Source: a virus
Taxonomy: Duplodnaviria; Heunggongvirae; Uroviricota; Caudoviricetes
Virus record (IMG/VR): IMGVR_UViG_2859805564_000008
DNA: 53,551 nt
Strand: one strand, 5' to 3'
Shown here: positions 6,073-53,551 of the stretch, in pieces
Layout of the letters: the number at the start of each line of letters is the position of its first letter
Numbering within the stretch: position 1 is the first letter of the stretch
Notes under the pieces: model-generated
Database searches by the model: none
The model's input: only the letters and a program-made list of their open reading frames with translations
What the model was told of the DNA's origin: nothing
Translations under genes and position numbers: made by a program

Positions 6073-6074
6073 GT

Positions 6075-6099: not shown

Positions 6100-6111
6100 C
6101 ATAAATATTGA

Positions 6112-12361: not shown

Positions 12362-12379
12362 CCCCGGCTTAAGCCGGGG
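12362..12379. terminator. palindromic hairpin between convergent Q and NYN genes
   Basis: CCCCGGCTT-AAGCCGGGG perfect dyad overlapping the NYN stop codon; weak U-tracts. Confidence 0.4.
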
Positions 12380-13232: not shown

Positions 13233-13244
13233 TGAAAAACTCAC

Positions 13245-30560: not shown

Positions 30561-30889
30561 TGGAGACGTTTCACTGGAAAGTGCGCCCGGATATGAATGT
30601 GGTATCAGAGCCGAAAGTGGTGACAGTGAAGCTGGGCGATGGTTATGAACAGCGTCGTGCGGCGGGACTGAATAACCAGTTGTCGACTTACAGCGTGACG
30701 ATACGTGTTCGTAAATGTGAACACCCATCTTTAAAAGCCTTTCTGGAACGGCACGGTGGCGTCCGTGCATTTCAGTGGACGCCACCTTATGACTGGAAAC
30801 CGATCAGGGTGGTTTGTCGTAAATGGTCGGCAAGCGTGGGGGCGCTGTGGGTAACCATAACGGCAGATTTTGAACAGGTCGTGGCATAG
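30560..30889 (+). CDS. minor tail protein M
   Basis: 109 aa, lambda M-like. Confidence 0.85.
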   Translation: METFHWKVRPDMNVVSEPKVVTVKLGDGYEQRRAAGLNNQLSTYSVTIRVRKCEHPSLKAFLERHGGVRAFQWTPPYDWKPIRVVCRKWSASVGALWVTITADFEQVVA

Positions 30890-30898
30890 GAGGCTCTG

Positions 30899-31597: not shown

Positions 31598-31602
31598 ATC
31601 CC

Positions 31603-32346
31603 ATGACAGAAACAGAATCAGCGATTCTGGCGCACGCCCGGCGATGTGCGCCAGCGGAGTCGTGCGGCTTCGTGGTGAGAACGCCGGAGGGAGAAAGATA
31701 TTTTCCCTGCGTGAATATCTCCGGTGAGCCGGAGGAGTATTTCCGGATGTCGCCGGAGGACTGGCTGCGGGCAGAAATGCAGGGTGAGATTGTGGCGCTG
31801 GTCCACAGCCACCCCGGTGGTCTGCCCTGGCTGAGTGAGGCTGACCGGCGGCTGCAGGTGCAGAGTGATTTGCCGTGGTGGCTGGTCTGCCGGGGTGAGA
31901 TTCATAAATTCCGCTGTGTGCCGCATCTCACCGGGCGGCGCTTTGAGCACGGGGTGACGGACTGTTACACGCTGTTCCGGGATGCTTACCATCTGGCGGG
32001 GATTGAGATGCCGGATTTTCATCGCGGGGATGACTGGTGGCGTAACGGTCAGAATCTCTATCTGGATAATCTGGAGGCCACAGGGCTGTATCAGGTGCCG
32101 TTGTCAGCGGCGCAGCCGGGCGATGTGCTGCTGTGCTGTTTTGGTTCATCGGTGCCGAATCATGCCGCTATTTACTGCGGCGACGGCGAGCTGCTGCACC
32201 ATATTCCTGAACAACTGAGCAAACGAGAGAGGTATACCGACAAATGGCAGCGACGCACACACTCCCTCTGGCGTCACCGGGCATGGCACGCATCTGCCTT
32301 TACGGGGATTTGCAACGATTTGGCCGCCGCATCGACCTTCGTGTGA
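31603..32346 (+). CDS. tail tip assembly protein K (JAB/MPN plus NlpC/P60-like)
   Basis: 247 aa with HSHPGG motif, lambda K-like. Confidence 0.85.
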   Translation: MTETESAILAHARRCAPAESCGFVVRTPEGERYFPCVNISGEPEEYFRMSPEDWLRAEMQGEIVALVHSHPGGLPWLSEADRRLQVQSDLPWWLVCRGEIHKFRCVPHLTGRRFEHGVTDCYTLFRDAYHLAGIEMPDFHRGDDWWRNGQNLYLDNLEATGLYQVPLSAAQPGDVLLCCFGSSVPNHAAIYCGDGELLHHIPEQLSKRERYTDKWQRRTHSLWRHRAWHASAFTGICNDLAAASTFV

Positions 32347-32891
32347 AAACGGGGGCCGAAGCCATCCGGGCGCTGGCCACACAGCTCCCGGCGTTTCGTC
32401 AGAAACTGAATGACGGCTGGTATCAGGTGCGCATTGCCGGGCGTGATGCAGGTGAAACCGAATTATCTGCCCGTCTTAATGAGCCGCTGGCAAATGGTGC
32501 CGTGATCCATATCGTGCCGCGTCTGGCGGGAGCTAAAAGTGGCGGTGTGTTTCAGGTGGTGCTGGGGGCGGCGTTGATTGCGGTGGCATGGTGGAACCCT
32601 GTGGGCTGGCTGGGTGCCGCGGCTGTATCGGGCATGTATGCGGCAGGGGCCAGTATGATCCTGGGCGGTGTGGCGCAGATGCTGGCACCGAAAGCCAGGA
32701 CGTCCACGGCAGCCAGTACAGATAACGGCAAACAGAACACCTATTTTTCCTCACTGGATAACATGGTTGCTCAGGGCAATGTTTTGCCTGTTCTGTACGG
32801 TGAAATGCGTGTGGGGTCGCGGGTGGTTTCTCAGGAGATCAGCACGGCAGACGAAGGGGACGGTGGTCAGGTTGTGGTGATTGGTCGCTGA
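32244..32891 (+). CDS. tail assembly protein I
   Basis: MAATHTLPLASPGMARICLYGDLQRFGRRIDLRV, lambda I-like. Confidence 0.85.
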   Translation: MAATHTLPLASPGMARICLYGDLQRFGRRIDLRVKTGAEAIRALATQLPAFRQKLNDGWYQVRIAGRDAGETELSARLNEPLANGAVIHIVPRLAGAKSGGVFQVVLGAALIAVAWWNPVGWLGAAAVSGMYAAGASMILGGVAQMLAPKARTSTAASTDNGKQNTYFSSLDNMVAQGNVLPVLYGEMRVGSRVVSQEISTADEGDGGQVVVIGR

Positions 32892-37157: not shown

Positions 37158-40100
37158 GTGAATATGGCAGTAAAAATTTCAGGTGTACTGAAAGACGGCA
37201 CAGGAAAACCGGTACAGAACTGCACAATCCAGCTGAAAGCAAAACGTAACAGTACCACGGTGGTGGTGAACACGCTGGCATCTGAAAATCCGGATGAAGC
37301 CGGGCGTTACAGTATGGACGTTGAGTACGGTCAGTACAGCGTTATTCTGTTGGTGGAAGGATTCCCGCCGTCACATGCCGGGACCATCACAGTGTATGAA
37401 GATTCCCGACCCGGTACGCTGAATGATTTTCTCGGTGCCATGACGGAGGATGATGCCCGTCCGGAGGCACTGCGCCGTTTTGAGCTGATGGTGGAAGAGG
37501 TGGCGCGTAACGCGTCCGTGGTGGCACAGAACACGGCAGCCGCGAAGAAGTCAGCCAGTGATGCCAGCACATCAGCCCGTGAGGCGGCAACCCATGCGAC
37601 TGATGCTGCAGGCTCAGCACGCGCAGCCAGCACGTCAGCCGGACAGGCCGCGTCGTCGGCTCAGTCAGCGACTTCCAGCGCAGGAACGGCATCAACAAAG
37701 GCCACTGAAGCATCAAAAAGTGCTGCCGCTGCAGAGTCCTCAAAAAGCGCGGCAGCTACCAGTGCCAGTGCCGCGAAAACGTCAGAAACGAATGCGGCAG
37801 CGTCACAACAATCAGCAGCCACTTCTGCATCCACCGCGACCACGAAAGCGTCAGAAGCTGCCACCTCAGCCCGGGATGCGGCGGCTTCAAAAGAGGCGGC
37901 AAAATCATCAGAAACGAACGCATCCTCGAGCGCCAGTAGCGCAGCTTCCTCGGCAACGGCGGCAGCAAATTCTGCGAAGGCGGCCAAAACGTCCGAGACG
38001 AACGCCAGGTCTTCTGAAACGGCAGCGGGACAGAGTGCCTCAGCTGCGGCAGGCTCAAAAACAGCGGCTGCATCATCTGCCAGTGCCGCGTCAACAAGTG
38101 CCGGGCAGGCCTCAGCCAGTGCCACCGCTGCCGGAAAGTCGGCAGAAAGCGCCGCATCATCCGCTTCAACAGCCACAACGAAGGCTGGCGAAGCCACTGA
38201 GCAGGCCAGCGCAGCAGCGAGGTCAGCTTCCGCAGCGAAGACATCCGAAACGAACGCGAAAGCGTCGGAAACCCGTGCAGAATCCTCAAAAACGGCTGCT
38301 GCATCGTCCGCCAGTTCGGCGGCGTCATCGGCATCATCTGCGTCTGCTTCAAAAGATGAGGCGAGCAGACAGGCATCAGCAGCGAAAGGCAGCGCCACGA
38401 CGGCATCCACGAAGGCGACAGAGGCAGCTGGCAGTGCGACGGCGGCAGCTCAGAGCAAAAGTACGGCGGAATCCGCGGCAACGCGCGCTGAGACAGCGGC
38501 AAAACGGGCAGAGGATATTGCATCCGCCGTGGCGCTTGAGGATGCGAGCACGACGAAAAAGGGGATAGTACAGCTCAGCAGTGCGACCAACAGCACTTCC
38601 GAGTCACTGGCGGCAACGCCAAAAGCCGTTAAGGCCGCGTATGACCTGGCTAACGGGAAATACACCGCACAGGATGCAACGACAGCACAGAAAGGGATAA
38701 TCCAGCTAAGCAGCGCGACCAACAGCACGTCTGAAACGCTGGCGGCAACGCCAAAGGCAGTAAAATCAGCCTATGACAATGCAGAGAAACGTCTGCAGAA
38801 AGACCAGAACGGCGCTGATATACCCGATAAGGGACGCTTCCTGAACAACATTAACGCGGTCAGTAAAACAGACTTTGCTGATAAGCGTGGTATGCGTTAT
38901 GTGCGGGTTAACGCTCCTGCAGGTGCAACATCTGGAAAATATTACCCTGTTGTTGTTATGCGTTCTGCTGGCTCAGTAAGCGAACTGGCATCAAGGGTCA
39001 TTATCACCACGGCAACGCGAACCGCAGGCGATCCGATGAATAACTGCGAGTTTAACGGATTTGTTATGCCTGGTGGCTGGACTGACAGGGGGCGTTATGC
39101 TTATGGAATGTTCTGGCAATATCAAAACAATGAACGAGCCATCCACTCAATAATGATGAGTAATAAGGGCGATGATTTGCGCTCTGTGTTCTATGTTGAT
39201 GGCGCTGCTTTCCCTGTTTTTGCGTTTATCGAAGATGGCCTGTCAATATCCGCACCTGGTGCTGATCTCGTTGTTAATGATACGACCTATAAGTTTGGGG
39301 CAACAAATCCGGCGACTGAATGTATTGCGGCGGACGTTATCCTTGATTTTAAGAGTGGGCGTGGTTTTTATGAGTCTCATTCGTTAATCGTTAACGATAA
39401 CTTGTCGTGCAAAAAACTTTTTGCCACAGACGAAATTGTAGCGCGTGGTGGTAATCAGATTCGAATGATAGGTGGGGAGTATGGTGCATTATGGCGTAAT
39501 GATGGCGCTAAAACTTACCTGCTGCTTACCAATCAAGGTGATGTTTATGGTGGCTGGAATACATTAAGACCGTTTGCTATTGATAACGCAACCGGCGAAC
39601 TGGTTATTGGAACCAAACTGTCCGCAAGTCTGAACGGTAATGCATTAACAGCAACAAAGCTGCAAACGCCAAGACTGGTTTCTGGTGTTGAGTTTGATGG
39701 TTCCAAAGATATTACTTTAACCGCCGCGCATGTGGCTGCTTTTGCCAGAAGGGCAACGGATACATATGCCGATGCGGATGGTGGCGTTCCCTGGAATGCC
39801 GAATCAGGCGCTTATAATGTCACCCGCTCTGGCGACAGCTATATTCTGGTTAACTTCTATACCGGAGTCGGAAGTTGCCGGACATTGCAGATGAAGGCGC
39901 ATTACAGAAATGGTGGTCTGTTCTACCGTTCTTCAAGAGACGGTTATGGTTTTGAAGAAGACTGGGCAGAAGTTTATACCTCGAAAAATCTTCCACCAGA
40001 AAGCTACCCAGTAGGCGCACCAATCCCGTGGCCATCAGATACCGTTCCGTCTGGCTATGCCCTGATGCAGGGGCAGGCTTTTGACAAATCTGCTTACCCG

Positions 40101-40709
40101 AAACTCGCAGCCGCTTATCCGTCAGGCGTGATCCCTGATATGCGTGGCTGGACGATTAAGGGCAAACCTGCCAGTGGTCGTGCCGTATTGTCTCAGGAAC
40201 AGGACGGCATTAAATCGCACACCCACAGCGCCAGCGCATCCAGTACGGATTTGGGGACGAAAACCACATCGTCGTTTGATTACGGCACTAAATCCACGAA
40301 TAACACCGGGGCGCATACGCACAGTCTGAGTGGCTCTACGGGGTCTGCCGGTGCTCATACTCATGGTAATGGTATTCGTTGGCCAGGAGGCGGCGGTTCT
40401 GCGTTAGCATTTTATGATGGCGGTGGGTTCACTTATGTCAAGGATTCACAGTATCAAGTAAGCCCGGGGACTTCTTCCAGTAGATCGTATTATCAACGTA
40501 TTCAGACACAGTCAGCAGGTGCTCATACCCACTCGCTGTCTGGTACTGCAGCAAGTTCTGGCGCACATGCACATACTGTAGGTATTGGTGCGCATACGCA
40601 CTCGGTTGCGATTGGCTCACATGGACACACCATCACCGTTAACGCTGCTGGTAACGCGGAAAACACCGTCAAAAACATCGCATTTAACTATATTGTGAGG
40701 CTTGCATAA
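37158..40709 (+). CDS. side tail fiber protein (Stf-like)
   Basis: 1183 aa; Stf-like N-terminus, ~330-aa Ala/Ser/Thr-rich repeat region, C-terminal His-containing repeats (GAHTHSLSG). Confidence 0.8.
37540..38560. repeat. GC-rich low-complexity coding repeat within the tail fiber gene
   Basis: Repeated ...AAKTSETNA.../...SASSAAS... units; produces long spurious ORFs in the other frames and on the opposite strand. Confidence 0.8.
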
Positions 40710-41293
40710 TGGCATTCAGAATGAGTGAACAAGCACGGACCATAAAAATTTATAATCTGCTGGCCGGAACTAATGAATTTATTGGTGAAGGTGATGCATA
40801 TATTCCGCCTCATACAGGTCTGCCAGCAAACAGTACCGATATTGCACCACCAGATATTCCTGCTGGCTTTGTGGCTGTTTTCAACAGTGATGAGGCATCG
40901 TGGCATCTCGTTGAAGACCATCGGGGTAAAACGGTTTATGACGTAGCGTCAGGGGACGAGTTATTTATTTCTGAACTCGGTCCGTTACCGGAAAATGTTA
41001 CCTGGTTATCGCCGGAAGGGGAGTTTCAGAAGTGGAACGGCACAGCCTGGGTGAAAGATGCAGAAGCAGAAAAACTGTTCCGGATCCGGGAGGCGGAAGA
41101 AACAAAAAACAGCCTGATGCAGGTAGCCAGCGAGCATATTGCGCCGCTTCAGGATGCTGCAGATCTGGAAATTGCAACGGAGGAAGAAACCTCATTGCTG
41201 GAAGCCTGGAAAAAGTATCGGGTGTTGCTGAACCGTGTTGATACATCAACTGCACCGGATATTGAGTGGCCAGAAGAACCAGACACCGTGTAA
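40709..41293 (+). CDS. tail fiber assembly protein (Tfa-like)
   Basis: 194 aa, overlaps the stf stop; N-terminus [17 protein letters not shown] typical of Tfa chaperones. Confidence 0.8.
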
Positions 41294-41305
41294 GCAAAAA
41301 AGAAA

Positions 41306-41342
41306 AACCGCAGACACGACGTATGCATGACGTGCTGCGGTT
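41306..41342 (-). terminator. terminator between convergent tfa and GIY-YIG genes
   Basis: Hairpin AACCGCAG...CTGCGGTT; on the minus strand it is followed by a U-rich tract. Confidence 0.55.
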
Positions 41343-41362
41343 TATGCTTATCACTTAAAGAC

Positions 41363-42181
<819 letters not shown>

Positions 42182-42542
42182 TCATTGCAAGGGCTCACAA
42201 CCAGTAGTGTTGAGAAAACCATCGGAGAAATGAGGCTAAGCCTTTGAATTTACATAGTACAAAAAAGATACTTTTCCTCATAATGTGAGCTAATTTTATG
42301 TTTCGTTTGATGATTGGACCGGTCTCGAAAACCGTAGACACATAGTATGCGTTAATTTATGAACAAACTACTTGTCTGCTGTTTTTCTGTCATTAGTCGT
42401 ATATAGAATGATTCTCTATGCCTAACAAAGCATCACCAGTGCTAGATTACGTTGTAGTCACTGTTTAAATATCCAGATAAAACATTTCCTTCTGGGTTGA
42501 ATGAGTGATAAAGTTTCACCCATTAGACCCCTTGGAGGAATT

Positions 42543-43976
42543 ATGTCTGAATTTGAAGTGTTGGCACAGCATCTGCTGAAGGAAGCCGAGGCGGAAGAAA
42601 AGTTGCGACAGGAAAATGATAAAAAGCTTATCGAGAAAGTGCTGGAAATCTATGATCAGAAGTATGTGGCTGAATTACTGAGAAAAGTCGGAAAAAATGA
42701 GTGGAGCCGTGAAACCATTAACCGCTGGATTAATGGCAAGTGTTTACCAAAATCGTTGACTTCAGTAGAAGAGTCTCTTCTGCGTAAGATGCTACCAGAA
42801 CCACCTGCAAACCATCCGGAATATGCTTTCCGCTTCATTGACTTATTTGCTGGAATTGGAGGGATACGGAAAGGTTTTGAGGCCATTGGAGGCCAGTGTG
42901 TTTTTACCAGTGAATGGAATAAAGATGCTGTGCGTACATACAAGGCCAACTGGTTTAACGATGAACAGGTGCATAAATTCAATCTCGATATTCGGGAAGT
43001 CACGCTGAGTGATAAAACCGATGTATTGGAAACGGATGCTTATGCATATATTGATGAGCATGTGCCGGATCATGATGTGCTTCTTGCGGGGTTCCCGTGC
43101 CAGCCATTTAGCCTTGCTGGTGTTAGTAAGAAAAACTCACTTGGTCGTGCGCATGGTTTTGAATGTGAAGCACAAGGAACACTTTTTTTTGACGTGGCAC
43201 GTATTATACGAGCAAAAAAACCGGCAATTTTTGTGCTGGAAAATGTCAAAAATCTGAAGAGCCATGATAAGGGTAAAACTTTCAAAGTCATTATGGAGAC
43301 CCTTGACGAGCTGGGCTACGAAGTTGCCGATGCTGCAGAAATGGGAAAAAACGATCCAAAGATTATCGATGGGAAGCATTTTTTGCCTCAGCATCGTGAA
43401 CGCATTGTTCTGGTCGGATTTAGACGAGATCTGAATATTCACAAGGGGTTTACCTTGCGTGATATCAGTCGTTTTTATCCGGAACACCGCCCATCATTTG
43501 GTGAATTGCTGGAGCCTGTAGTCGACAGTAAATATATACTTACGCCAAAACTATGGGAGTACCTTTATAACTACGCCAAAAAGCATGCAGCCAAGGGGAA
43601 TGGTTTTGGCTTTGGGTTGGTCAATCCTGAGAATAAGGAAAGCATTGCACGCACACTTTCTGCCAGATATCACAAAGACGGATCAGAAATTCTTATTGAT
43701 CGTGGTTGGGATATGGCAACGGGAGAGGCTGACTTTATGAATGAGAGTAATCAGGCTCGTCGACCACGCAGGCTGACTCCCCGAGAGTGCGCACGCCTTA
43801 TGGGATTTGAAAAACCTGGAGGGAAACCATTCCGTATTCCGGTTTCAGATACTCAGTCATATCGGCAGTTCGGTAACTCAGTTGTGGTGCCAGTATTTGA
43901 AGCTGTTGCCAGACTTCTGGAACCCTATATCCTCAAAGCTGTTTCTGCTGATGCTGGTAAGACTGGGCAGCCTTGA
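42543..43976 (+). CDS. ecoRIIM: C5-cytosine DNA methyltransferase, Dcm/M.EcoRII type (CCWGG)
   Basis: [12 protein letters not shown] (motif I), GFPCQPFS (motif IV), ENV, QFGNSV; close to M.EcoRII/Dcm throughout; GGAGG RBS before MSEFEV; track ORF starts at 42501. Confidence 0.95.
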
Positions 43977-44010
43977 GAACATCTCCCGGCCTTTTAAGCC
44001 GGGAGTCAGC

Positions 44011-45225
44011 CTATGATAGTTCAGCGTAAAGCTCTATCAGCTCAGTAATGAATGCTCCGAGCGTTATTAATTCTTCTCTAACTGCTTCTGGGTATTTTTT
44101 ATGTAAAGTTGATGGTACAACGAGTCTGACACCCGCATCTTTCATTTCTCGGTATTGTGCTGAAGAAACACCTTCTTGCAGTGTAAATAAATGTACCTGA
44201 TGGATTTTATCTGCTTCATTCAGTATCTGACGCCAGCGATCTTTGCAGGTGGTCTTTACTGCCAGCATACGTAAGTTTTCTACAGGAAATTCAACGTTAT
44301 GATATGCCTCTGCTGAAGGAAACAGGAAATCTGGTTTTTTATTACCTTCAGTTACTGCCTGAGTGGAGAAATGCCGTAGTCCGTGCTCGATAAAAAGCTT
44401 CTCTAGGTGAAGTTCAAGTGATTTGCCTGCCCTTGATTTACGTCGATTACTGACAGAGTTGGCTAATGCAATAAACTCATCTACAGAATCGAATCCTTTC
44501 TTAATAATATCAAGAACATGTAATTCCTCGACGAGTAGAAAAATATCATACTCGACACGCCGACGGTCAATCAGTTGCTCATCTGGATCCTTGGAGTTTT
44601 TAGCATAATGGCCAGCAGCATATTGAATAATTTCGTTTCCAGAAGGAAAACGCTTCTTCCAGTCTTCAGGAATAACATATTTATGATTTACTGGAGTTTG
44701 CTGAAGAGACAATCCGCCCAAAATTTGTCCGGCAGGGCCGGAAATTAGGGTTCCAGGTATGATTTCGCCAATAGCAGACTCGATGATATCCTCTTCATCG
44801 GGATTGACGCAGACCCATATATCTACCTCGGAACAGTCAGTGTTCTGTTCGTTTAACCTGAAAGCAAGAATTGTGAGGGCTCCTGTATTTTCAGGGTTCT
44901 GTAATGGACTTCCTCTCCCCCAGCGCGTAATTCTTTTTTCGTTTCGGGTCTTACCAAAATAACGGTTGTTGTAATAAATTGCGCGTGCTTGGGTATCAGG
45001 GCAATCATGGGATGATACATGCGCAGTAAGGAAGACTGAAGGGTTCAGTTCGCGAGTATGATTGATAGATGGAAAAAGCTTTTCAACGATATTTGAGGGG
45101 ATATAAAGTCCGACCTGATGGCCACCTGTTGCGCCTGTGTCGTTTGCAGAAAGGCGTTTGATGTAGATAAAGTAATTCCCGCTTGCGATATCAAGCAGCC
45201 AGTTATGAAAAACCGACATATACAT
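44011..45225 (-). CDS. ecoRIIR: type IIE restriction endonuclease, EcoRII type
   Basis: 404-aa ORF (MYMSVFHNWLLD...) highly similar to my recollection of R.EcoRII, convergent with the methylase gene; start may be the internal Met at 45219. Confidence 0.9.
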   Translation of the reverse strand: MYMSVFHNWLLDIASGNYFIYIKRLSANDTGATGGHQVGLYIPSNIVEKLFPSINHTRELNPSVFLTAHVSSHDCPDTQARAIYYNNRYFGKTRNEKRITRWGRGSPLQNPENTGALTILAFRLNEQNTDCSEVDIWVCVNPDEEDIIESAIGEIIPGTLISGPAGQILGGLSLQQTPVNHKYVIPEDWKKRFPSGNEIIQYAAGHYAKNSKDPDEQLIDRRRVEYDIFLLVEELHVLDIIKKGFDSVDEFIALANSVSNRRKSRAGKSLELHLEKLFIEHGLRHFSTQAVTEGNKKPDFLFPSAEAYHNVEFPVENLRMLAVKTTCKDRWRQILNEADKIHQVHLFTLQEGVSSAQYREMKDAGVRLVVPSTLHKKYPEAVREELITLGAFITELIELYAELS

Positions 45226-45290
45226 CCCTTTGTTAACATACAGTCAGGGTTAACATTTTTCCATAGTTATAGATAAGCGGCTAGGAACTT

Positions 45291-45326
45291 AAGGGAAAAA
45301 CAAAAAGCCCGCATAAGCGGGCTTTT
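45291..45326 (-). terminator. minus-strand intrinsic terminator upstream of the endonuclease gene
   Basis: AAAGCCCGC-ATAA-GCGGGCTTT hairpin followed on the minus strand by UUUUUGUUUUU. Confidence 0.6.
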
Positions 45327-45453
45327 GTGTCACTCGAGAGCCGCGGCTCCTTTGCGTATCCTTTTTTGTCTCCTCACCGTCTGGTCGGTGTCCTGCTGAG
45401 ACTGCTAACTTCCTGTTTTTGTTGGTGTTGTCCTTACACCGTCCAATCATGAT

Positions 45454-45478
45454 TGGTGGAGCTGGCGGGAGTTGAAAC
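45454..45478 (-). other. tmRNA (ssrA) 3'-end-like fragment
   Basis: Minus strand reads CGGTTTCAACTCCCGCCAGCTCCACCA, one mismatch to the E. coli ssrA 3' terminus as I recall it; no upstream tmRNA body. Confidence 0.45.
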
Positions 45479-45818
45479 CGTAGCCACGTCGTATGCAAGA
45501 ACGTGCTACGACTGGCTGGTGAACTTCCGATAGTGCGAGTATTGAATGATTTCCAACTGTTATCGATTTTGCGTATTTTTTGCATGAGAGGATTTTTACC
45601 TCCTCCCACCGATCCTCCATGGCTTTACGCCAGTGTCTCTAGGACTGCTATGTGCCAAAAGCAGAACTTGCTTACATTGTGCTATGTTAATTTGTTGGGA
45701 GCAGGTCACAAAGTCCAGCCAGGACGAAAATAAATAATTGCCATACATTTAGTGTTGATTATTTCGGGATTGTTCATCTATTCTGATTGTATCAGCGAGC
45801 AGGCCGGAGTCACTCTTC

Positions 45819-46043
45819 GTGGATCATCCCATACTTCAGAAAACAATCGTTCTCTTTATTCTTGCCCTATGGGTAATTGATCCATTCAGGACAAAGAGAA
45901 GAAAGCATACTGAATCCACCATTGAAGAAGCCGATGCCAGAGAACGTCATAAATGGCGATATCTCAGATGGGGAGTACGAACAATACAAATTGCAGCGAC
46001 AGTATATATGTTTGCTATGCTGATTCAGTTTTTACTGAAGTAG
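45819..46043 (+). CDS. small hypothetical membrane protein
   Basis: 74-aa ORF with two hydrophobic segments flanking a basic loop. Confidence 0.25.
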   Translation: MDHPILQKTIVLFILALWVIDPFRTKRRKHTESTIEEADARERHKWRYLRWGVRTIQIAATVYMFAMLIQFLLK

Positions 46044-46888
46044 ACGGCTCAGGCAGGTACGACCGGACGGAATTGGCAGCCAATTCAGCGGAGGCCGGAC
46101 GGGGTTAAACGTCCCCTCTGTGCCAGTGACCTGCTCCCCGTTGATTCACACGGAAGGCTGTTAGAAATGTGCAATTTTTGCTCACAGCAGACTGTAAGAG
46201 TTGATTGTGTGTTGCACTGTGAGATCAAATCAAAACCAATATATTCAGGCATCTTCCCACAGCGCCCCCATTCAACAGGCAATTGCTCCTTATCAAATCC
46301 CTCAAACCAGTAAACACTACTTTTTGCCCAACAATAGGCACTTCTCCCCAACCCTAATGAAACAATGCGCGACTCCAGTCCGGCTTGAGACGACCATGCC
46401 GTTTAAGGCGCACACCATTACAAGCAGTTGCTCATATTGAGGGAAAGTTAATAAAGAAACTTAACGGCATTTCCTCTTTTGCGCACGTTTCAATTGCCTT
46501 GATATCCAGTCTTGGTTACGTTTGCGAATTTTTTGTTTCATTGGCTACTGTTCTGATTCGACTCACTTATTAATCAATGATCTTACTGTATTCCAACGCC
46601 ATGCTTTGTACAGGAATGTCCGCTTTTCGCTCATAACAGACATTAACTACAGTTATGGTAGAAGGTATGCATGCTGGGTGGGGAAAGTATGAAGGAAAAG
46701 AAGACTGCTGCGCCGTTTGTCGTCACATTTATCTTCATTGGCTATGCAAGTCGTAATACAAGGTGGGACAAAACTGAGACACATAAGGCCTCGCAATGAC
46801 TTGCAAGGCTTTACATGTTTTGATGTGGTGGGACGTGTGAGCGCAGTGTTGATGGGGTAATGCTTTGAATTAGAAGCGGATTCTTATA

Positions 46889-46938
46889 ATTCGTAATGCG
46901 AAGGTCGTAGGTTCGACTCCTATTATCGGCACCATTAA
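46889..46938. repeat. attR core (50-bp direct repeat of the thrW 3' half)
   Basis: Identical to 1399-1448; not preceded by the tRNA 5' half. Confidence 0.85.
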
Positions 46939-47539
46939 GAAAATTAATAACTTAGCTTAACTTCTCTAAGAAATTGTATCTTCTGTTATCACTTACAAAC
47001 GCCTATACGTTGTTATGGGCTTTGGTAGTGTAACACGTATGGGCGAGTAGTTCCCAGGCTCAACCTCGTAACAAGTTCCTTTGAAGCTGGAAGACGTGCC
47101 ACCGTCTCTAAACCTTCTACCAAAACTCTTAGCAAGATGTTCCACACCTGGCGCGGTGTCCAATGATGCTACACGTCGTGAGACGTTGCAGAGGATAAAC
47201 AGGCTAAATGATGGGAAGAGTTTTAAGTGCAATAGTGGATTAAAGCCCACCTCTTCAAAACCTAACTTGATCGGGAAAGAATCAAGCTCTAGCACGGTTT
47301 CGTCCACCGGAGTACAACGGGTGCCTGATAAGAGAAGAACTGCTAAGACTTCATAGCTTTTGTGAAAAAGCCCTTTTTAGTGGATACGCCTACGGCGCTT
47401 ATTTTTTGGTATAACCATCAAAGGCGCTTTATGGCTCCTATTGTCTTGAAAATGTATCTTTACTTGTATTGTGTTTTATGCGTAGTCTCCCTGTGTAGTA
47501 TGTAACTTGTTAATTTTCATATGAATACAGAGGCACACG

Positions 47540-47698
47540 ATGAAAAACATTGCAGCAATCAAACGTAATAACCGCAAGATTCACGCTCGTAAGTTCCTGT
47601 CTACGCCAGAAGGAAAAGCCTGGCTAGAGCGTAAACAGAGAGAGAACGAAGAAAGAAAACTCCTTAGTGAGTTGAAATGGCTTAGAGAGGATTTCTGA
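47540..47698 (+). CDS. small basic hypothetical protein (52 aa)
   Basis: ATG preceded by GAGG; MKNIAAIKRNNRKIHARKFLSTPEGKAWLERKQRENEERKLLSELKWLREDF; below the ORF-track length cut-off. Confidence 0.3.
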   Translation: MKNIAAIKRNNRKIHARKFLSTPEGKAWLERKQRENEERKLLSELKWLREDF

Positions 47699-48689
47699 AA
47701 ATCTCCAGAACGCAACAGGACGCATTCTAACGCTGTTTTCATTACTCGGTATAGGGATAGGTGATGTGTGTTTAATGCGTCTGTGCGCTTGTTTTGTGCC
47801 TTATTTTGCATTTTCATAATGCGGAAGAGAACACGGAAAACCTTAAAATTAATTATTGGGGTATTTAAGGCTATTTTCAGGTGATTTAAGGGTATTAAAC
47901 TTGATTTAATTGATTAAAATATAAACAGATAATTATGTATCTTATTGATTTATAAGGTTATTTTTAAGTAAAGGTAAATAAAAAATAAATAGCCATAAAT
48001 AGCTATAAATACATCTTAATACCTATATCCCTTCCCTTATGGCTAGATTGCGAGAGGTGCTTAACGCGATTTTCAGCGCCCCCCGATCTGGAAAATCCAG
48101 AATCCCCAAATATCAGCAAGGAATTTTCTTGCGTAATCAACATCGTTTTTACCTATTAAATCATTACACAGAAAGCCTTTCTGTAATGTCTCTCACTAAA
48201 CTTTCACTAAACACGAGAATGATCGGTTTTATGTCGGATCAGATGCTAGAAACAGCACCACGTCTCACAAGGGCTGTAAGCGATGAAACCAGTGTTTATG
48301 CGGGTGCAGGTCAAAATATAGGCCAAAATCCATTTAACATAATAAATGTTATATGTGCTAAGGAACACATATAACGCCTTGAATTGATGTATCAGTGGAA
48401 AAGTGATGGATTTTTTACGTAGGAGCACGAAAGGGCTTCTATTGACTTTTGTGTGCTATGAAATATAATTAAAGTTTTTTGTTTTTATTGTGTGATGTGG
48501 TGGGTTACACAGGGGAATAGATTAAATGGTGTTCTGTTTATACAGGTTTATTTGTTAGATCAACAATTTGGCATTTCTAAACAGATGTTTGAACGTTGCC
48601 AAATGTCTTGACAACACAAGAAAAGGGCTTGCTATGCCAGGCATTATGAGGTGTACTGGCAATAGCGGACACTACCATTTGTTCTTTTT

Positions 48690-49508
48690 TTAAGCAGCCA
48701 TCTGATGATATTTTTCCCTGAAGGCTGCCGGGGAGATATTCCCCAGACGAGAGTGACGACGCTGACGATTGTAGAAAATCTCAATGTATTCCCGTATTAC
48801 TGAGATGGCTTCATCCCGGTTATTAAAACGATAGTGGCTCAGGCTCTCATTTTTCAGCGTTCCCCAGAAGCTTTCCATCGGAGCGTTGTCGTAACAGTTA
48901 CCTTTACGCGACATTGATGTTTTCAGACCAGACTGCTCCTGTATGACCCGGTAATCGTATGCGCAGTACTGTGAACCTCGATCAGAGTGGTGGATTAGCC
49001 CGGCAGGTGGGCGCTGGCTCCTGAGCGCCATAAACAGGGCTTTACCTGTCAGCTCTTTTGTCATGCGCTCTCCCATGGCGTAGCCGACAATTTCGCACGT
49101 ATAAACATCTTTGATGCCAGCGAGGTACAACCATCCCTCCTGTGTGGCAACATACGTCAGGTCCGCCACCCAGACCTGATTTGGTGCTGTAGGAGCGAAC
49201 GTCTGGTTCAGCAGATTTGGCGCAACTGGCAGATTGTGGTTCGAGTTCGTAGTCGCTCTGAACTTGCGTTTCTGCTTACAGCGTAGCCTTAGCTCCTTAC
49301 GAAGACGTGCCAGTCGGTCACGACCAACAATGATGCCATTCTCTGCCAGCTCCGTCTGGAGCCGCCGGGTTCCATATGTTTCGCGAGTGCGGATATGTGC
49401 CACCTTAATCTCCAGTTTTAGCCGCTCATCACTTTGTTTTCTGTCTGAGGGTTCATGCTGTACCCAGTTGTAATAACCGCTCCTGGATACACCAAATACC
49501 TGACACAT
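48690..49508 (-). CDS. IS3-family transposase OrfB (DDE catalytic domain)
   Basis: 272 aa with integrase-core motifs (VWVADLTY...HSDRGSQY...NAPMESF). Confidence 0.85.
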   Translation of the reverse strand: MCQVFGVSRSGYYNWVQHEPSDRKQSDERLKLEIKVAHIRTRETYGTRRLQTELAENGIIVGRDRLARLRKELRLRCKQKRKFRATTNSNHNLPVAPNLLNQTFAPTAPNQVWVADLTYVATQEGWLYLAGIKDVYTCEIVGYAMGERMTKELTGKALFMALRSQRPPAGLIHHSDRGSQYCAYDYRVIQEQSGLKTSMSRKGNCYDNAPMESFWGTLKNESLSHYRFNNRDEAISVIREYIEIFYNRQRRHSRLGNISPAAFREKYHQMAA

Positions 49509-49543
49509 CGCTTCAATGGGAAATTGTTGTCGCCATTGTTCGA

Positions 49544-49846
49544 TTAACGCGTATTTTTCAGCGACTCCTGTGCAAAATACGCTGTTGCTTTTTTTAATAT
49601 ATCTCGCTCAAGGCGAGCTTCATTTAACGCCTTACGCAGTTGCAGAATTTCAGATTCCAGTTCAGCCACCGTGCGGGAACCAGGAGTACCGAGCCCTTTT
49701 CTGGCGGCGGTAACCCATTGTCCTAAAGTGCCTTCAGGAAGAGATAATCGGGAAGCGCCTTCACTGATCGAAAGTTGATTTTCAGGAACCGTTCTGACAG
49801 CTTCGGCTTTGAACTCTTTAGAGTAACGTTGGGTTTTTCTGCTCAT
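49544..49846 (-). CDS. IS3-family transposase OrfA (HTH, leucine zipper)
   Basis: 100 aa with HTH and LxxxxxxL heptads, upstream of OrfB in a different frame. Confidence 0.85.
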   Translation of the reverse strand: MSRKTQRYSKEFKAEAVRTVPENQLSISEGASRLSLPEGTLGQWVTAARKGLGTPGSRTVAELESEILQLRKALNEARLERDILKKATAYFAQESLKNTR

Positions 49847-50384
49847 TATTAGCTCCTTCTGATGCCATTCTATTTCAGGAAGGAGTGTCCGTTAAACTCA
49901 GGCTACCTCATTACACGAAATAAGGCTATAAAAACAAAATAAATTTTAAAATTTGCACAAACGAGAAACTCGTTCAGAAACAAACAGAACAATTTTTAGC
50001 CAACAATTTCTGATGGTGCTCTGTAAGCCGCATTACACAAGGCTTTGCGAAAGTGATGTAAAAGTGAAGAAAGTAAGAATTGAACTTTTAAGCTACTTTT
50101 CATTGGATTTTTTAGTAGGGAATTACACAGGGAATAGAGAGCATTATTCTATGATTTACACAGGGAATATAGGGGGATTATGGCACACACATAGAAAGAC
50201 ATTACACAGAGTGCTATGTGACAAATGGATGTAACGAGAGGTTACATTCATTTATCTGAAATGCTCTCTGTAAGAAAGTTGGTAGTAACGATATATTACA
50301 TAGACTAATTATTGAATGTAACGATATTACACATCGGTAGTAACGATACGTTACATCGGAAGATGATTGGATGTAACGGTAGCT

Positions 50385-51825
50385 CACAGTGAACTAGGGG
50401 TAGGTCATAGTGAACTACCCCCACAGAATTCTGTTACCCCTATCAAGTCTGATACCCCTATCAAAACTGATACCCGATAAGTATAAATAACACCTAAATA
50501 GCTGCGCGGAATAGTAGATCACTTTGAGGGAACTTAGCCCGGATTGTGCGATCTGATCAATCGCCAAATCAAAACAAATCACCAACCGGACTGAGCAATG
50601 CCGATCATAGCACCAATTTCCCGTGACGAACGACGCCTGATGCAGAAAGCCATCCATAAAACACACGATAAAAATTATGCCCGCAGACTGACTGCCATGC
50701 TGATGCTGCACCGGGGCGACCGTGTCAGCGACGTTGCCAGAACGCTCTGCTGCGCCCGTTCCTCTGTTGGACGCTGGATTAACTGGTTCACGCAGTCGGG
50801 TGTTGAGGGACTGAAATCATTACCTGCCGGGCGTGCCCGTCGCTGGCCGTTTGAGCATATCTGCACACTGTTACGTGAGCTGGTAAAACATTCTCCCGGC
50901 GACTTTGGCTACCAGCGTTCACGCTGGAGTACAGAACTGCTGGCAATAAAAATCAATGAGATAACCGGTTGCCAGTTAAATGCCGGAACCGTTCGCCGCT
51001 GGTTGCCGTCTGCGGGGATTGTGTGGCGAAGGGCTGCGCCAACTCTGCGTATCCGTGACCCGCATAAAGATGAAAAGATGGCAGCAATCCATAAAGCACT
51101 GGACGAATGCAGCGCAGAGCATCCGGTCTTTTATGAAGATGAAGTGGATATCCATCTTAATCCCAAAATCGGTGCGGACTGGCAACTGCGCGGACAGCAA
51201 AAACGGGTGGTCACGCCGGGACAGAATGAAAAATATTATCTGGCCGGAGCGCTGCACAGCGGGACAGGTAAAGTCAGCTGTGTGGGCGGCAACAGCAAAA
51301 GTTCGGCGCTGTTCATCAGCCTGCTGAAGCGGCTTAAAGCGACATACCGTCGGGCGAAAACCATCACGCTGATCGTGGACAACTACATTATCCACAAAAG
51401 CCGGGAAACACAGAGCTGGCTGAAGGAGAACCCGAAGTTCAGGGTCATTTATCAGCCGGTTTACTCGCCATGGGTGAATCATGTTGAACGGCTATGGCAG
51501 GCACTTCACGACACAATAACGCGTAATCATCAGTGCAGCTCAATGTGGCAACTGTTGAAAAAAGTTCGCCATTTTATGGAAACCGTCAGCCCATTCCCCG
51601 GAGGCAAACATGGGCTGGCAAAAGTGTAGCGGTATTAAGCGCAGCTATTTAGGAAATGATTTCCGATCTATTTAGGAAGTAACCTAGGAAGTGGTTTCCT
51701 ACCTACTTAGGAAATGACTTCCACCAATACTATAATTAAATACTATAAATAATATTCTTTATACTATATAGGTCACTGTGAACTAGGGGGGTAGTTCACT
51801 ATGAGCTAGGGGGTAGGTCACTGTG
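50385..51825 (+). mobile_element. IS630-family insertion sequence (putative; ends approximate)
   Basis: Transposase flanked by ~40-bp imperfect inverted repeats beginning CACAGTGA; right end abuts IS1. Confidence 0.55.
50598..51629 (+). CDS. IS630-family transposase
   Basis: 343 aa, N-terminal HTH, C-terminal DDE-type region. Confidence 0.85.
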   Translation: MPIIAPISRDERRLMQKAIHKTHDKNYARRLTAMLMLHRGDRVSDVARTLCCARSSVGRWINWFTQSGVEGLKSLPAGRARRWPFEHICTLLRELVKHSPGDFGYQRSRWSTELLAIKINEITGCQLNAGTVRRWLPSAGIVWRRAAPTLRIRDPHKDEKMAAIHKALDECSAEHPVFYEDEVDIHLNPKIGADWQLRGQQKRVVTPGQNEKYYLAGALHSGTGKVSCVGGNSKSSALFISLLKRLKATYRRAKTITLIVDNYIIHKSRETQSWLKENPKFRVIYQPVYSPWVNHVERLWQALHDTITRNHQCSSMWQLLKKVRHFMETVSPFPGGKHGLAKV

Positions 51826-51880
51826 GGTGATGCTGCCAACTTACTGATTTAGTGTATGATGGTGTTTTTGAGGTGCTCCA

Positions 51881-52156
51881 GTGGCTTCTGTTTCTATCAG
51901 CTGTCCCTCCTGTTCAGCTACTGACGGGGTGGTGCGTAACGGCAAAAGCACTGCCGGACATCAGCGCTATCTCTGCTCTCACTGCCGTAAAACATGGCAA
52001 CTGCAGTTCACTTACACCGCTTCTCAACCCGGTACGCACCAGAAAATCATTGATATGGCCATGAATGGCGTTGGATGCCGGGCAACTGCACGCATTATGG
52101 GCGTTGGCCTCAACACGATTTTACGTCACTTAAAAAACTCAGGCCGCAGTCGGTAA
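51881..52156 (+). CDS. insA: IS1 InsA
   Basis: 91 aa, [42 protein letters not shown]... Confidence 0.95.
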
Positions 52157-52578
52157 CCTCGCGCATACAGCCGGGCAGTGACGTCATCGTCTGCGCGGAA
52201 ATGGACGAACAGTGGGGCTATGTCGGGGCTAAATCGCGCCAGCGCTGGCTGTTTTACGCGTATGACAGTCTCCGGAAGACGGTTGTTGCGCACGTATTCG
52301 GTGAACGCACTATGGCGACGCTGGGGCGTCTTATGAGCCTGCTGTCACCCTTTGACGTGGTGATATGGATGACGGATGGCTGGCCGCTGTATGAATCCCG
52401 CCTGAAGGGAAAGCTGCACGTAATCAGCAAGCGATATACGCAGCGAATTGAGCGGCATAACCTGAATCTGAGGCAGCACCTGGCACGGCTGGGACGGAAG
52501 TCGCTGTCGTTCTCAAAATCGGTGGAGCTGCATGACAAAGTCATCGGGCATTATCTGAACATAAAACACTATCAATAA
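52075..52578 (+). CDS. insB: IS1 InsB (expressed as InsAB' by -1 frameshift)
   Basis: Overlapping -1 frame ORF with IS1 InsB sequence. Confidence 0.9.
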
Positions 52579-52579
52579 G

Positions 52580-53551
52580 TTGGAGTCATTACCCAAGATT
52601 GCTCAACAGAAAGCTAAAACAGAAAAGCAGAATCAAAGAGCACAAGCTGCCGCAGCAAGAGCACAGGCAAGGCAACAGCAACAAATAGCAGCACGTAAAG
52701 AGAAAGCAGAATTAAAACTCCTTGATGTATCAAGCTCTATCAGTGCAATGCACCGTCTCTCTGTAGCGGAACAATACAAAGCTATTGCACAGGCTAGAGA
52801 GATAGCAAAACAATATGAGCAAGGGGCTATCAGCCTGGCGCGTATGAATAGTCAGATGAAACGCCTACAACAGCAACAACGTAAGATTAATGGCAACAGA
52901 AAAGCTCAATTTGCCCCCGTTAAGGGAGGATCAGGGAATTCCGCCACGATGGGCGCTCTGTTATTTGGAGGCGCTACGGCTGCTGCTGGCGTGATGGCTG
53001 TTAGTAAAACCTCTGAATTTATGGCTAACAGCTTTGCTAATGCTGAAACAGAAGGGGAGCTAATCCAACGTGCAAGGCTTGGTGGAGTTGATTACAACTT
53101 ACTTAATAATCTTGAGCGTTGGGCGTATGACAACGGGATCGATAGCCTCCAGGGTGATCCGGGACGCAGAAAAATACTAGATGCCATCGGTAAAGATGTA
53201 AAGGAACGCGCTACCAAAAGCTATGACGAGGCTGAATATGTAGTTGATAAGAAAACAGGGAAAGGCATATGGAAGGGCGGTGATTCTGGTATTAACACTT
53301 TAATGAATGAAGGATTCTTAACTAAAAAGGATTTGAAAGACTTTGCCAATAACTCTGCTGGTTTAATTTCAAAAGCTGTCAACGGAATGGTGAAAAAGGG
53401 CTATACCGACGCACAGATCGGTAGTCGTCTGGAAGATTTAGCGGACGACCTCCTCTTAACTTCTAAATATTGGCAAAGATCAGCCAGAGAGGTGCAGGCA
53501 AGCATTACCCAGCAAAAAGCCGCCGGACAATGGCTAACAGAAACACAGTAG
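52580..53551 (+). pseudogene. hypothetical gene, likely 5'-disrupted by IS1
   Basis: Reading frame opens inside the IS1 right end with no ATG for ~57 codons; Gln/Ala-rich coiled-coil region then hydrophobic Gly-rich segment; product not recognised. Confidence 0.35.

Follow-up and report, generated by a model that had tools for sequence, protein, structure and literature searches.

The window analysed here, a 53,551-nt stretch of a Caudoviricetes genome (IMG/VR record IMGVR_UViG_2859805564_000008), holds an EcoRII-type restriction-modification (R-M) pair inside a prophage, which raises the question of why a CCWGG R-M unit is kept in E. coli, a species in which ~99% of strains already carry Dcm. 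We consider it probable that the pair is a functional type II R-M unit isospecific with EcoRII (CCWGG), that it forms half of a three-gene defence cassette in an mEp460-like thrW prophage, and that its loss is largely harmless in dcm-vsr hosts. The analysis established that the genes are intact, to which families they belong, which residues are conserved, where the cassette lies, how widely it occurs and that it is linked to the neighbouring nuclease CMoRE; from these we infer specificity, expression in the lysogen and defensive pay-off.

The EcoRII-type C5-cytosine methyltransferase gene (M; 42543-43976, plus strand), delimited by its open reading frame, Pfam and comparison with plasmid pN3, encodes 477 amino acids. 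A GGAGG Shine-Dalgarno sequence precedes 42543, the point at which pN3 and RefSeq also begin M, and an alternative in-frame ATG further upstream at 42501 would yield a protein of 491 amino acids. The EcoRII-type (type IIE) restriction endonuclease gene (R; 44011-45225, minus strand), placed by Pfam, PDB and pN3 comparison, encodes 404 amino acids; the RefSeq version starts at 45219 and has 402. Both genes are intact and convergent, with a 34-bp gap between their stop ends, and their products give gap-free alignments with the pN3 enzymes M.EcoRII and R.EcoRII, at 91% and 86% identity, respectively. With functional residues intact and the same layout as in pN3, these data bear out the sequence-only reading, which had described a complete EcoRII-type pair consisting of a Dcm/M.EcoRII-type methyltransferase and a convergent 404-aa endonuclease; the open reading frames lie where it had placed them, at 42543-45225.

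The M protein matches the Pfam families DNA_methylase (PF00145, E = 5e-78) and DNA_meth_N (PF18284, E = 7e-27, over the full profile length, 1-57 of 57), and it scores 927 bits against NCBIfam PRK10458, for which the cut-off is 710. Its C5-methyltransferase motifs can be located as FAGIG at residue 102 (motif I), PCQ at 185 with the catalytic Cys186 (IV), ENV at 233 (VI), QHRER at 283 (VIII), RECAR at 414 (IX) and GNS at 444 (X), and few substitutions relative to M.EcoRII fall between motifs VIII and IX. M would thus be expected to methylate the inner cytosine of CCWGG. K-12 dcm-vsr belongs to the same C5-methyltransferase subfamily (PRK10458), has the same DNA_meth_N domain and presumably the same CCWGG target; however, K-12 Dcm is only 69% identical to M, and the window differs in having no overlapping vsr, in having a restriction gene as partner and in its prophage location. 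A tblastn search of the whole window gave no vsr homologue (lowest E = 1.3), in agreement with the earlier statement that none is adjacent. Since the window has no Vsr homologue and M is followed by R in convergent orientation, M is not a chromosomal dcm, and we rejected the idea that such a gene had been misread as an R-M methylase, the 69% identity to K-12 Dcm being set against 91% to M.EcoRII. The contrast that had been drawn with chromosomal dcm-vsr is correct as far as the missing neighbour goes, but it carries little weight: the pN3 prototype also lacks vsr beside it, and the host supplies Vsr.

R combines an N-terminal B3-like effector domain (Pfam EcoRII-N at residues 18-165, E = 4e-61) with a C-terminal PD-(D/E)XK catalytic domain (EcoRII-C at residues 229-393, E = 2e-71), and the EcoRII structure PDB 1NA6 matches it over residues 1-403 (E = 3e-243). 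When R was compared with published residue lists (PMC2770665, which includes the active site, and PMC6344858, which includes the PD...K...E motif), the permuted PD...K...E active site was found at the same positions (Glu271, Asp299, Lys324 and Glu337), along with the residues that read CC:GG (Lys328-Asp329-Arg330 and Asn260) and those of the pocket for the flipped bases (Arg222, Glu225, Tyr226, Phe229, Arg265 and Ala266); R262 and K263 are also conserved. In the effector domain, the base contacts His36, Gln37, Arg94, Glu96 and Arg98 are kept, as are the backbone contacts K23, N28, Y41, N61, R81, Y85, K92, T93, T100 and R101. Because of the 86% identity to the prototype and these conserved contacts, R is predicted to cleave /CCWGG, to be blocked by C5 methylation of the inner cytosine and to need two or more sites. 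Two findings that would have spoken against the pair, inactivating substitutions among the catalytic residues and a closest relative of different specificity, did not emerge: R has no such substitution, and its closest characterised enzyme is EcoRII. A changed specificity or a dead nuclease was likewise rejected as far as the sequence tells, all published contact and catalytic residues being conserved.

The resemblance to EcoRII of the IncN plasmid N3 (pN3; NC_015599.1, M at 30097-31530 and R at 31564-32778) extends to gene organisation, with 477 and 404 amino acids, convergent genes, a gap of 33-34 bp and a conserved hairpin in addition to matching active-site, CC:GG-recognition, base-flipping-pocket and effector-domain residues. 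The hairpin in the gap (43983-44005, predicted fold -15.9 kcal/mol), whose stems are kept in both the window and pN3, is likely a bidirectional terminator for the two genes. Blocks of ~80 bp upstream of M and ~60 bp upstream of R are also conserved. The former (42461-42542, plus strand) is near-identical to pN3 and to a Salmonella IncF plasmid, with unrelated sequence further upstream, and contains an inverted repeat, CCAGA-N13-TCTGG (42473-42495), as well as the GGAGG; it presumably comprises a promoter and M-operator. The latter (45226-45287, minus strand), common to the plasmid units by alignment, has a TATAAT-like box and is the presumed R promoter. In contrast with the conserved proteins, nucleotide identity to pN3 is only ~80% (79.9% across the span), and homology ends at 42461 on the left and at 45287 on the right. 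Beyond the right edge, a terminator scan identified a strong symmetric hairpin flanked by runs of A and T (45303-45326, predicted fold -18.1 kcal/mol), which is terminator-like and would insulate the unit on that side. The carriers and flanks differ as well: a chromosomal prophage with att-like repeats and CMoRE here, compared with a conjugative plasmid with IS6100 and plasmid genes at the pN3 locus.

A consensus promoter scan of the cassette returned 9 matches compared with 8.5 expected in shuffled sequence, which is not above chance, so we propose the promoters from conservation only and regard expression of the cassette in the lysogen as presumed. An Rfam scan of 40000-53551 found nothing in the R-M unit, its sole match being IS009 inside tfa. 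M.EcoRII has been described to autoregulate through a fused N-terminal repressor-type domain (PMC12707154), and because M has such a domain, the unit should need no C protein. The R-M unit would thereby be self-contained, with its own conserved upstream blocks and a hairpin shared between the convergent genes.

A lambdoid prophage of 45.5 kb, mEp460-like and integrated at thrW, contains the pair and is flanked by exact 50-bp att repeats. The left copy, attL (1399-1448, plus strand), consists of the 3' part of the tRNA-Thr(CGU) gene thrW, which ARAGORN places at 1369-1444, plus 4 nt, as established by extension of the exact repeat; the integrase gene directly adjoins it (1459-2622, minus strand; PHROGs). 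The right copy, attR (46889-46938, plus strand), was found by the same extension, and prophage-free genomes match from attR onward, where a tRNA-Thr is annotated. Between the two lie genes for integrase, repressor, terminase, portal, tape measure, J, Lom, stf and tfa, and over 17000-41300 the backbone shares 97-98% identity with the phages mEp460 and Ayreon. The last morphogenesis gene is the tail fibre assembly gene tfa (40709-41293, plus strand; Pfam Caudo_TAP, E = 5e-45), and in the cargo-free mEp460 genome tfa is joined directly to the DinI flank. The cassette is also atypical in composition, at 42.8% GC compared with 50.7% for the prophage. The cassette is thus prophage cargo (a "moron") in the slot from tfa to att, a slot described as non-essential, and the earlier placement of the pair as cargo between tfa and attR is confirmed.

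The cargo includes a third gene. Between tfa and M, a gene for a 257-aa GIY-YIG type IV modification-dependent endonuclease (41363-42136, minus strand) matches the PADLOC PD-T4-3 profile at positions 1-255 of 256 (E = 7.6e-140), and its product is identical to PDB 9U75 at 250 of 257 positions (97%; E = 5e-171, residues 1-257). The GIYxY-YIG tyrosines Y17, Y19 and Y31 could be read directly from the sequence. This enzyme, CMoRE, combines in one polypeptide a GIYxY-YIG nuclease domain at the N-terminus and a modification-sensing domain at the C-terminus; the E. coli O157:H7 protein has been crystallised (PDB 9U75 and 9U7U) and shown to cut 5hmC- and 5ghmC-containing DNA (PMC12923530). The window protein shows no notable difference from the crystallised one, and on the function reported in that study it would target hmC- and glucosyl-hmC-containing (T4-type modified) DNA. 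Because CMoRE lies between tfa and M, the cargo is a three-gene defence cassette (M, R and CMoRE), and its nature therefore differs from the R-M pair alone that had been proposed. The sequence-only reading mentioned neither this 257-aa GIY-YIG gene in the tfa-M interval nor a 23-nt ssrA relic in the R-attR interval.

The cassette is widespread. It is present in full in ~244 of 5426 complete E. coli genomes (roughly 5%), in unrelated phage backbones, and some 35 prophage contigs in IMG/VR have the R allele. In 34 such contigs whose R is at least 95% identical, M accompanies R in every one and CMoRE lies next to them in 32; across their different phage backbones, M and R are mostly 100% identical, with R at 99-100% amino acid identity. 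Both genes are intact in 30 of the 34 loci and R in 33; M is frameshifted next to an intact R in three loci, and R is broken in one. These disruptions may be sequencing errors or may reflect relaxed selection. The prophage allele (at least 95% in R) was found only in E. coli, the best match in any species being 88% in a collection with one genome per species. EcoRII-type units on plasmids match 655 PLSDB records, 486 of them conjugative, and the prophage alleles document an E. coli-specific prophage-borne EcoRII lineage with ~80% nucleotide identity to its plasmid counterpart. The exact M and R proteins are already in public databases (RefSeq, UniProt and IMG; at least 1000 contigs each). The R-M pair is thus real but common in E. 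coli and already annotated, and by itself it matters little; the new aspect of CMoRE is that it is tightly linked here to an R-M unit of the EcoRII type.

Among the isolated phages in INPHARED, no genome with the R-M unit was found: Megablast gave only a 99-bp flank match, and the only tblastn matches to R, at 38-40% identity, were Burkholderia phage KL3 and two contigs of faecal origin. KL3, a P2-like phage, has an EcoRII-C/Vsr/methylase module described in 2010 (PMC3091744), which similarly places an EcoRII-family endonuclease and a Dcm-type methylase on a temperate phage and was proposed to cut non-self DNA. However, the alignment of KL3 gp45 with R, at 38.6% identity, covers only the C-terminal catalytic domain (R residues 171-397), and the KL3 module includes vsr, has its three genes co-oriented, and sits in a P2-like backbone in another host. 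Literature searches on EcoRII with prophage, on EcoRII with ssrA, and on defence hotspots at tail-fibre or attR ends found no paper on this E. coli prophage allele. The earlier remark that EcoRII is classically plasmid-borne and here sits in a phage is accurate about the location, but it overstated the surprise, given hundreds of E. coli chromosomes, ~35 IMG/VR contigs and KL3.

The position of the unit next to an att site invites the idea that the unit acts as an addiction module, in which prophage loss would dilute M faster than R, leading to cutting at unmethylated CCWGG and to post-segregational killing that stabilises the prophage; the sequence-only reading had called prophage loss potentially toxic through such killing. 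The R-M unit adjoins the att site and would therefore be lost together with the prophage, and EcoRII is a system with demonstrated post-segregational killing, which is enhanced by an unstable M mutant (PMC3874152). The same study, however, reports that Dcm attenuates killing after EcoRII loss, and plasmids from dcm+ donors are unrestricted by EcoRII, with Dcm fully protective in conjugation assays (PMC11602122). Using a chimeric query composed of the R gene and K-12 vsr, in which one copying error made matches read 99.9% rather than 100%, we found chromosomal vsr in all 60 of the best-matching carrier chromosomes, and a match to vsr is present in ~99% of complete E. coli genomes. Because vsr overlaps dcm in K-12, the sampled carriers almost certainly hold dcm-vsr. 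A second match place per record was dropped as a sign of host dcm, since the query held ~100 nt of ssrA flank that could explain it. The natural M frameshifts beside an intact R, if genuine, would also be lethal without a back-up methylase in the host. Since the sampled carriers have vsr and almost certainly dcm, and Dcm blunts EcoRII killing, we judge stabilisation of the prophage by addiction unlikely, and the predicted toxicity of prophage loss is not well supported.

A functional cassette in a dcm-vsr host, the reading that we favour, would operate as follows. M would methylate the inner cytosine of CCWGG, marking 5mC at these sites as self. R would act as a type IIE dimer: further CCWGG copies must first occupy the effector domains at its N-terminus, and only then would the C-terminal domains flip out the central base pair and cleave. 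Under-methylated CCWGG DNA would be attacked by R, and hypermodified T-even DNA by CMoRE. Because E. coli hosts already carry dcm-vsr, the R-M unit could establish safely, and its loss would be largely harmless. Restriction would mainly bite DNA from dcm-negative cells or DNA that fast phage replication leaves under-methylated. The selective value of the unit as a barrier is in doubt because Dcm is present in ~99% of E. coli and EcoRII does not restrict plasmids from dcm+ donors. The near-constant pairing with CMoRE would nonetheless make the cassette a natural combination of type II and type IV systems, in which 5mC is self and DNA with unmodified or hypermodified cytosine is attacked.

The benefit could instead fall to the phage, with M topping up CCWGG methylation of replicating phage DNA against EcoRII-type enzymes encoded by plasmids (IncN, IncF and others) in the next host, and R kept mainly as a co-travelling gene. 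Such plasmid units are common in enterobacteria, as the PLSDB counts above indicate, and protection by Dcm against enzymes such as EcoRII has been reported as only partial (PMC4659465). The prophage also encodes a second, solitary N6/N4 methyltransferase, and it has 92 CCWGG sites compared with 91.3 expected; because this shows no avoidance, the prophage would depend on methylation. However, the near-invariance of R and its integrity in 33 of 34 loci are unexpected for a dispensable passenger, though the spread may be recent, and the usual phage answer is a solitary methyltransferase. We consider this account quite improbable. Still less credible is a silent or decaying passenger, an R-M unit that is unexpressed, for example as silenced low-GC foreign DNA, or that is being lost because Dcm makes it redundant. 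It would fit the low GC content of the cassette (42.8%), the promoter signal at chance level and the disruption of M or R in 4 of 34 loci, but it accords poorly with functional residues that are all intact and with 30 of 34 loci in which both genes are intact and nearly invariant across phage backbones. The upstream blocks, too, are conserved with the plasmid versions at ~80% overall nucleotide identity, and this conservation despite overall divergence points to constraint on them.

On either side of the cassette stands a decayed att copy of the ssrA type. Just 3' of the tfa stop codon, a 36-nt hairpin element (AAACCGCAG...CTGCGG; 41305-41340, plus strand, predicted fold -20.8 kcal/mol), which we term att-A, marks the left boundary; it resembles 45475-45510, homology to the CT01 phage circle begins at it, and in cargo-free mEp460 one copy links tfa to the DinI flank. 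A degenerate att-like copy, att-B (42306-42351, plus strand), was recognised between the CMoRE and R-M units by MAFFT alignment with att-C, the right boundary. A pattern search showed att-C (45443-45510, plus strand) to consist of a palindrome, CCAATCATGATTGG, a 23-nt copy of the ssrA 3' end and the hairpin element. The 23 nt (45454-45476) match the 3' end of ssrA (tmRNA) exactly, in reverse orientation, and 1.4 kb of other DNA separates them from attR. In P13-6, the att-C sequence runs on into a real ssrA gene, and att-C thus reads as a relic of an ssrA-type phage attP.

These elements suggest, tentatively, that the arm from tfa to att is a serially assembled, att-bounded cargo array, in which CMoRE and the EcoRII unit were captured as separate islets together with ssrA-type att copies (now att-A, att-B and att-C, variously decayed) by integrase-mediated or att-guided recombination, in an integron-like accretion, and that the block, a "cytosine-state" immunity pair, now passes between temperate phages that are unrelated to each other. 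We regard this as a possible, rather doubtful account. Empty and half-filled sites fit it: mEp460 is free of cargo; E203449 carries CMoRE but not the R-M unit, 42348 being joined to 45475 in one hybrid att-B/att-C site; and in L093 the R-M unit is present without CMoRE, with homology resuming at 42320 and a different left-hand module beginning exactly at att-B. Such sites agree with capture by att sites without proving the mechanism, and the nested att-like repeats offer a testable model for how temperate phages gain defence genes at the att arm. The CT01 43.7-kb "plasmid" is a whole contractile-tail phage genome with the cassette, either an excised circle or an assembly product; beyond the ssrA core the window keeps matching it to 45581, where the aligned stretch ends beside a DinI-like gene.

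The two genes of the restriction-modification (R-M) unit were found exactly where the sequence-only reading had placed them. The methyltransferase gene M (42543-43976, + strand) encodes a 477-aa protein with Pfam DNA_methylase and DNA_meth_N domains, and the endonuclease gene R (44011-45225, - strand) encodes a 404-aa protein with EcoRII-N and EcoRII-C domains that can be aligned along its full length with the crystal structure of EcoRII (1NA6, E 3e-243). A second in-frame ATG for M, at 42501, is also conserved in the IncN plasmid N3 (pN3), the original source of EcoRII. We place the start at 42543 rather than at 42501 because GGAGG lies just before this ATG and because RefSeq and pN3 alike use it. 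M and R are convergent, and the 34-bp gap between them holds a hairpin (43983-44005) whose stems are conserved with pN3. Together, these ORFs, their layout, their domains and the structural match cannot be due to chance.

When the proteins were compared with their pN3 counterparts, M was identical to M.EcoRII at 431/474 positions (91%) and R to R.EcoRII at 348/403 (86%), in both cases free of gaps, whereas M was just 69% identical to K-12 Dcm. Functional residues of R, listed in the EcoRII-DNA co-crystal paper (PMC2770665) and a CCGG-family paper (PMC6344858), were checked position by position. All were conserved, namely the active site (E271, D299, K324 and E337), the CC:GG readout (K328-D329-R330 and N260), the flipped-base pocket (R222, E225, Y226, F229, R265 and A266, with R262-K263), the base contacts of the effector domain (H36, Q37, R94, E96 and R98) and 10/10 backbone-contact residues. 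M likewise has motifs I, IV (PCQ, Cys186), VI, VIII, IX and X. The earlier description of a complete EcoRII-type pair thus stands, with both genes intact, catalytic residues included, and EcoRII rather than an enzyme of other specificity as the closest characterised relative. The assignment to the EcoRII family is secure and the observation real; by homology, the pair would be expected to recognise CCWGG.

From 42461 to 45287, the sequence is homologous to plasmid-borne EcoRII units, those of pN3 and of a Salmonella IncF plasmid (~80% nucleotide identity), with a sharp edge on either side. Conserved non-coding blocks lie 5' of M (82 bp, 42461-42542), where an inverted repeat CCAGA-N13-TCTGG is found, and 5' of R (~60 bp), where there is a TATAAT-like box. 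Both blocks are presumably promoters, and the one 5' of M is presumably also the site of M self-repression; M.EcoRII autoregulates and carries a fused repressor domain (PMC12707154). Because the hits of a simple promoter scan of the cassette were not above chance, the promoters of M and R are treated here as putative. A strong hairpin (45303-45326) closes the unit at the right.

The window starts in a 417-aa ORF, which by position we take to be proA, followed by thrW (tRNA-Thr CGU, 1369-1444) with an integrase gene directly next to it. A stretch made up of the last 46 nt of thrW and the next 4 nt (1399-1448) recurs exactly at 46889-46938; the two copies are attL and attR, and they bound a 45.5-kb prophage. 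Within it, PHROGs calls include integrase, CI-type repressor, large terminase, portal, protease/capsid, tape measure, J, Lom and side tail fibre, and its 24-kb morphogenesis half is 97-98% identical to phages mEp460 and Ayreon. E. coli E6474 has the same prophage end at the same chromosomal place. With these att ends and this backbone, the R-M unit (42.8% GC vs 50.7% for the prophage) therefore lies between tfa and the att site, in the classical non-essential slot, and its earlier reading as prophage cargo was right.

Between an ssrA-type att relic and attR, 45582-46888 (~1.3 kb) holds no confident gene; its longest ORFs include one of 74 aa (45819-46043). This stretch is common at 100% to IMG/VR contigs L106 and L124 and, by locus comparison, is also present in E6474. 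IS sequences are abundant 3' of attR (46939-53551), among them an IS3-type element (orfA 49544-49846 and orfB 48690-49508, both - strand), a DDE_3/IS630-like transposase (50598-51629) and an IS1 transposase (52075-52578); E6474 has an integrase, a reverse transcriptase gene and P4-like satellite genes at this position instead.

A gene that had gone unmentioned separates tfa from M (41363-42136, - strand). It encodes a 257-aa PD-T4-3/CMoRE protein (PADLOC, E 7.6e-140, full length) that is identical at 250/257 positions to CMoRE of E. coli O157:H7, whose crystal structure is PDB 9U75. The cargo is therefore a three-gene cassette of CMoRE, M and R. CMoRE, a modification-dependent (type IV) endonuclease of the GIY-YIG family, degrades DNA that contains 5hmC or glucosyl-5hmC, protects against T-even phages and has much lower affinity for 5mC or plain DNA (PMC12923530). 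In such a cassette, R would attack CCWGG DNA without 5mC and CMoRE would attack DNA with hypermodified cytosine, while 5mC from M (and Dcm) would be tolerated by both. Complementary cover through pairing of type II and type IV restriction is a known principle.

Three att-like elements bracket the two units of the cassette, CMoRE and R-M. Right of R, att-C (45443-45510) combines the palindrome CCAATCATGATTGG with 23 nt that exactly copy the 3' end of ssrA and with a hairpin element of 36 nt; past it, up to 45581, the sequence still matches the phage circle of E. coli CT01, where the alignment ends beside a DinI-like gene. Between the two units, att-B (42306-42351) is a decayed att-like copy, and att-A (41305-41340), after the tfa stop codon, consists of the hairpin part alone, with fuller versions in CT01 and E203449. 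Natural comparators form a nested series that breaks exactly at these elements: mEp460 has a single hairpin and lacks cargo; E203449 carries CMoRE but not the R-M unit, and one hybrid site there joins window position 42348 to 45475; and in locus L093 the R-M unit begins exactly at att-B (42320), next to a different left-hand module of 870 bp. This series suggests that att-flanked islets were captured one after another at an att site of the ssrA type. Similar junctions would be expected from ordinary recombination at a shared terminator-like linker, and those seen here do not tell the two apart.

The cassette lies directly beside the genuine ssrA gene in P13-6 and in an ST131 strain. CT01 carries it on a 43.7-kb circular 'plasmid', inside the complete genome of a contractile-tail phage, where it is flanked by an acyltransferase gene and DinI-int. 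This record (L002; NZ_CP081794.1, 'plasmid unnamed3', 43,671 bp, circular) is filed as a plasmid but has the content of a temperate phage (terminase to baseplate, tfa, acyltransferase, CMoRE, M, R, DinI and integrase), and may be an excised, circular phage; the small records H27 and H29 are similar. Further att-like elements are found in L002 (18920-19045) and in two other compared loci, L009 (~4950-5050 and 5980-6104) and L008 (~5880-5990).

To check host dcm status, a chimeric query of the window R gene and K-12 vsr, which overlaps dcm in K-12, was run on 5426 complete E. coli genomes, with matches in 5369/5426. A second matching place was present in 60/60 of the best R-carrying chromosomes and, since vsr is without similarity to the cassette, can only be vsr. 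Host killing after EcoRII loss is attenuated by Dcm (PMC3874152). Because carriers also hold vsr, and Dcm blunts this killing, addiction to the R-M unit is unlikely in natural hosts, and the earlier proposal that prophage loss could be toxic is weak. Dcm is widespread in natural E. coli, and an EcoRII recipient restricted 0 conjugative plasmids from a dcm+ donor, only those from dcm-minus donors (PMC11602122); Dcm protection against enzymes such as EcoRII has been described as partial (PMC4659465). Since EcoRII spares plasmids from dcm+ donors, the barrier role of the unit is limited to DNA that comes from dcm-negative sources or is under-methylated by Dcm. No vsr adjoins the unit, as had been observed in contrasting it with chromosomal dcm-vsr, although the pN3 prototype also lacks an adjacent vsr. 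Among four IMG/VR loci (L108, L115, L124 and L125), M has a frameshift or stop beside intact R in three and R is frameshifted beside intact M in one; the M frameshifts, if real and not sequencing or assembly errors, fit Dcm as a back-up methylase.

At least 80% of the R-M region (3.1 kb) was found in 378/5426 complete E. coli genomes, some of which represent the plasmid lineage, and at least 80% of the cassette including CMoRE (4.3 kb) in 244. The exact M and R proteins each occur on at least 1000 contigs, under database names that include 'type II restriction endonuclease' and 'Restriction endonuclease EcoRII, N-terminal/EcoRII C terminal'. Within IMG/VR, the R allele (≥95% identity) is present in 34 prophage contigs, with M in 34/34 and CMoRE adjacent in 32/34; the M and R proteins are mostly 100% identical among them though neighbouring tail genes differ. 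In a one-genome-per-species collection, no species had an R above 88% identity, the best matches lying mostly on contigs from other enterobacteria that were short or resembled plasmids, and none of the cultured phages in INPHARED had the R-M unit. Among phages, the closest precedent is found in Burkholderia phage KL3, for which an EcoRII-C/Vsr/methylase module was reported in 2010 (PMC3091744). Since the R-M unit is a close relative of the EcoRII prototype, uncharacterised yet already annotated, and is common in E. coli, its novelty is low; only the CMoRE linkage and the att-bounded modular structure are of possible specialist interest.

The prophage also carries a second, solitary DNA methyltransferase gene of the N6/N4 class (13977-15029, + strand; Pfam N6_N4_Mtase; PADLOC MTase_II, E 2e-152), for which no partner nuclease was identified; it is adjoined by a divergent gene for an NYN-domain protein (12369-13244, - strand). 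Inside the coding sequence of tfa, in its 3' part, 41052-41250 (+ strand) matches Rfam IS009, a candidate small RNA of E. coli, at 224.7 bits. The side tail fibre gene (37158-40709, + strand) has a long repetitive Ala/Ser/Thr-rich stretch (~residues 110-450) with GC >0.6 and strong AT skew, which gives rise to spurious long ORFs on both strands (37558-38568, 37661-38410 and 37756-38523).
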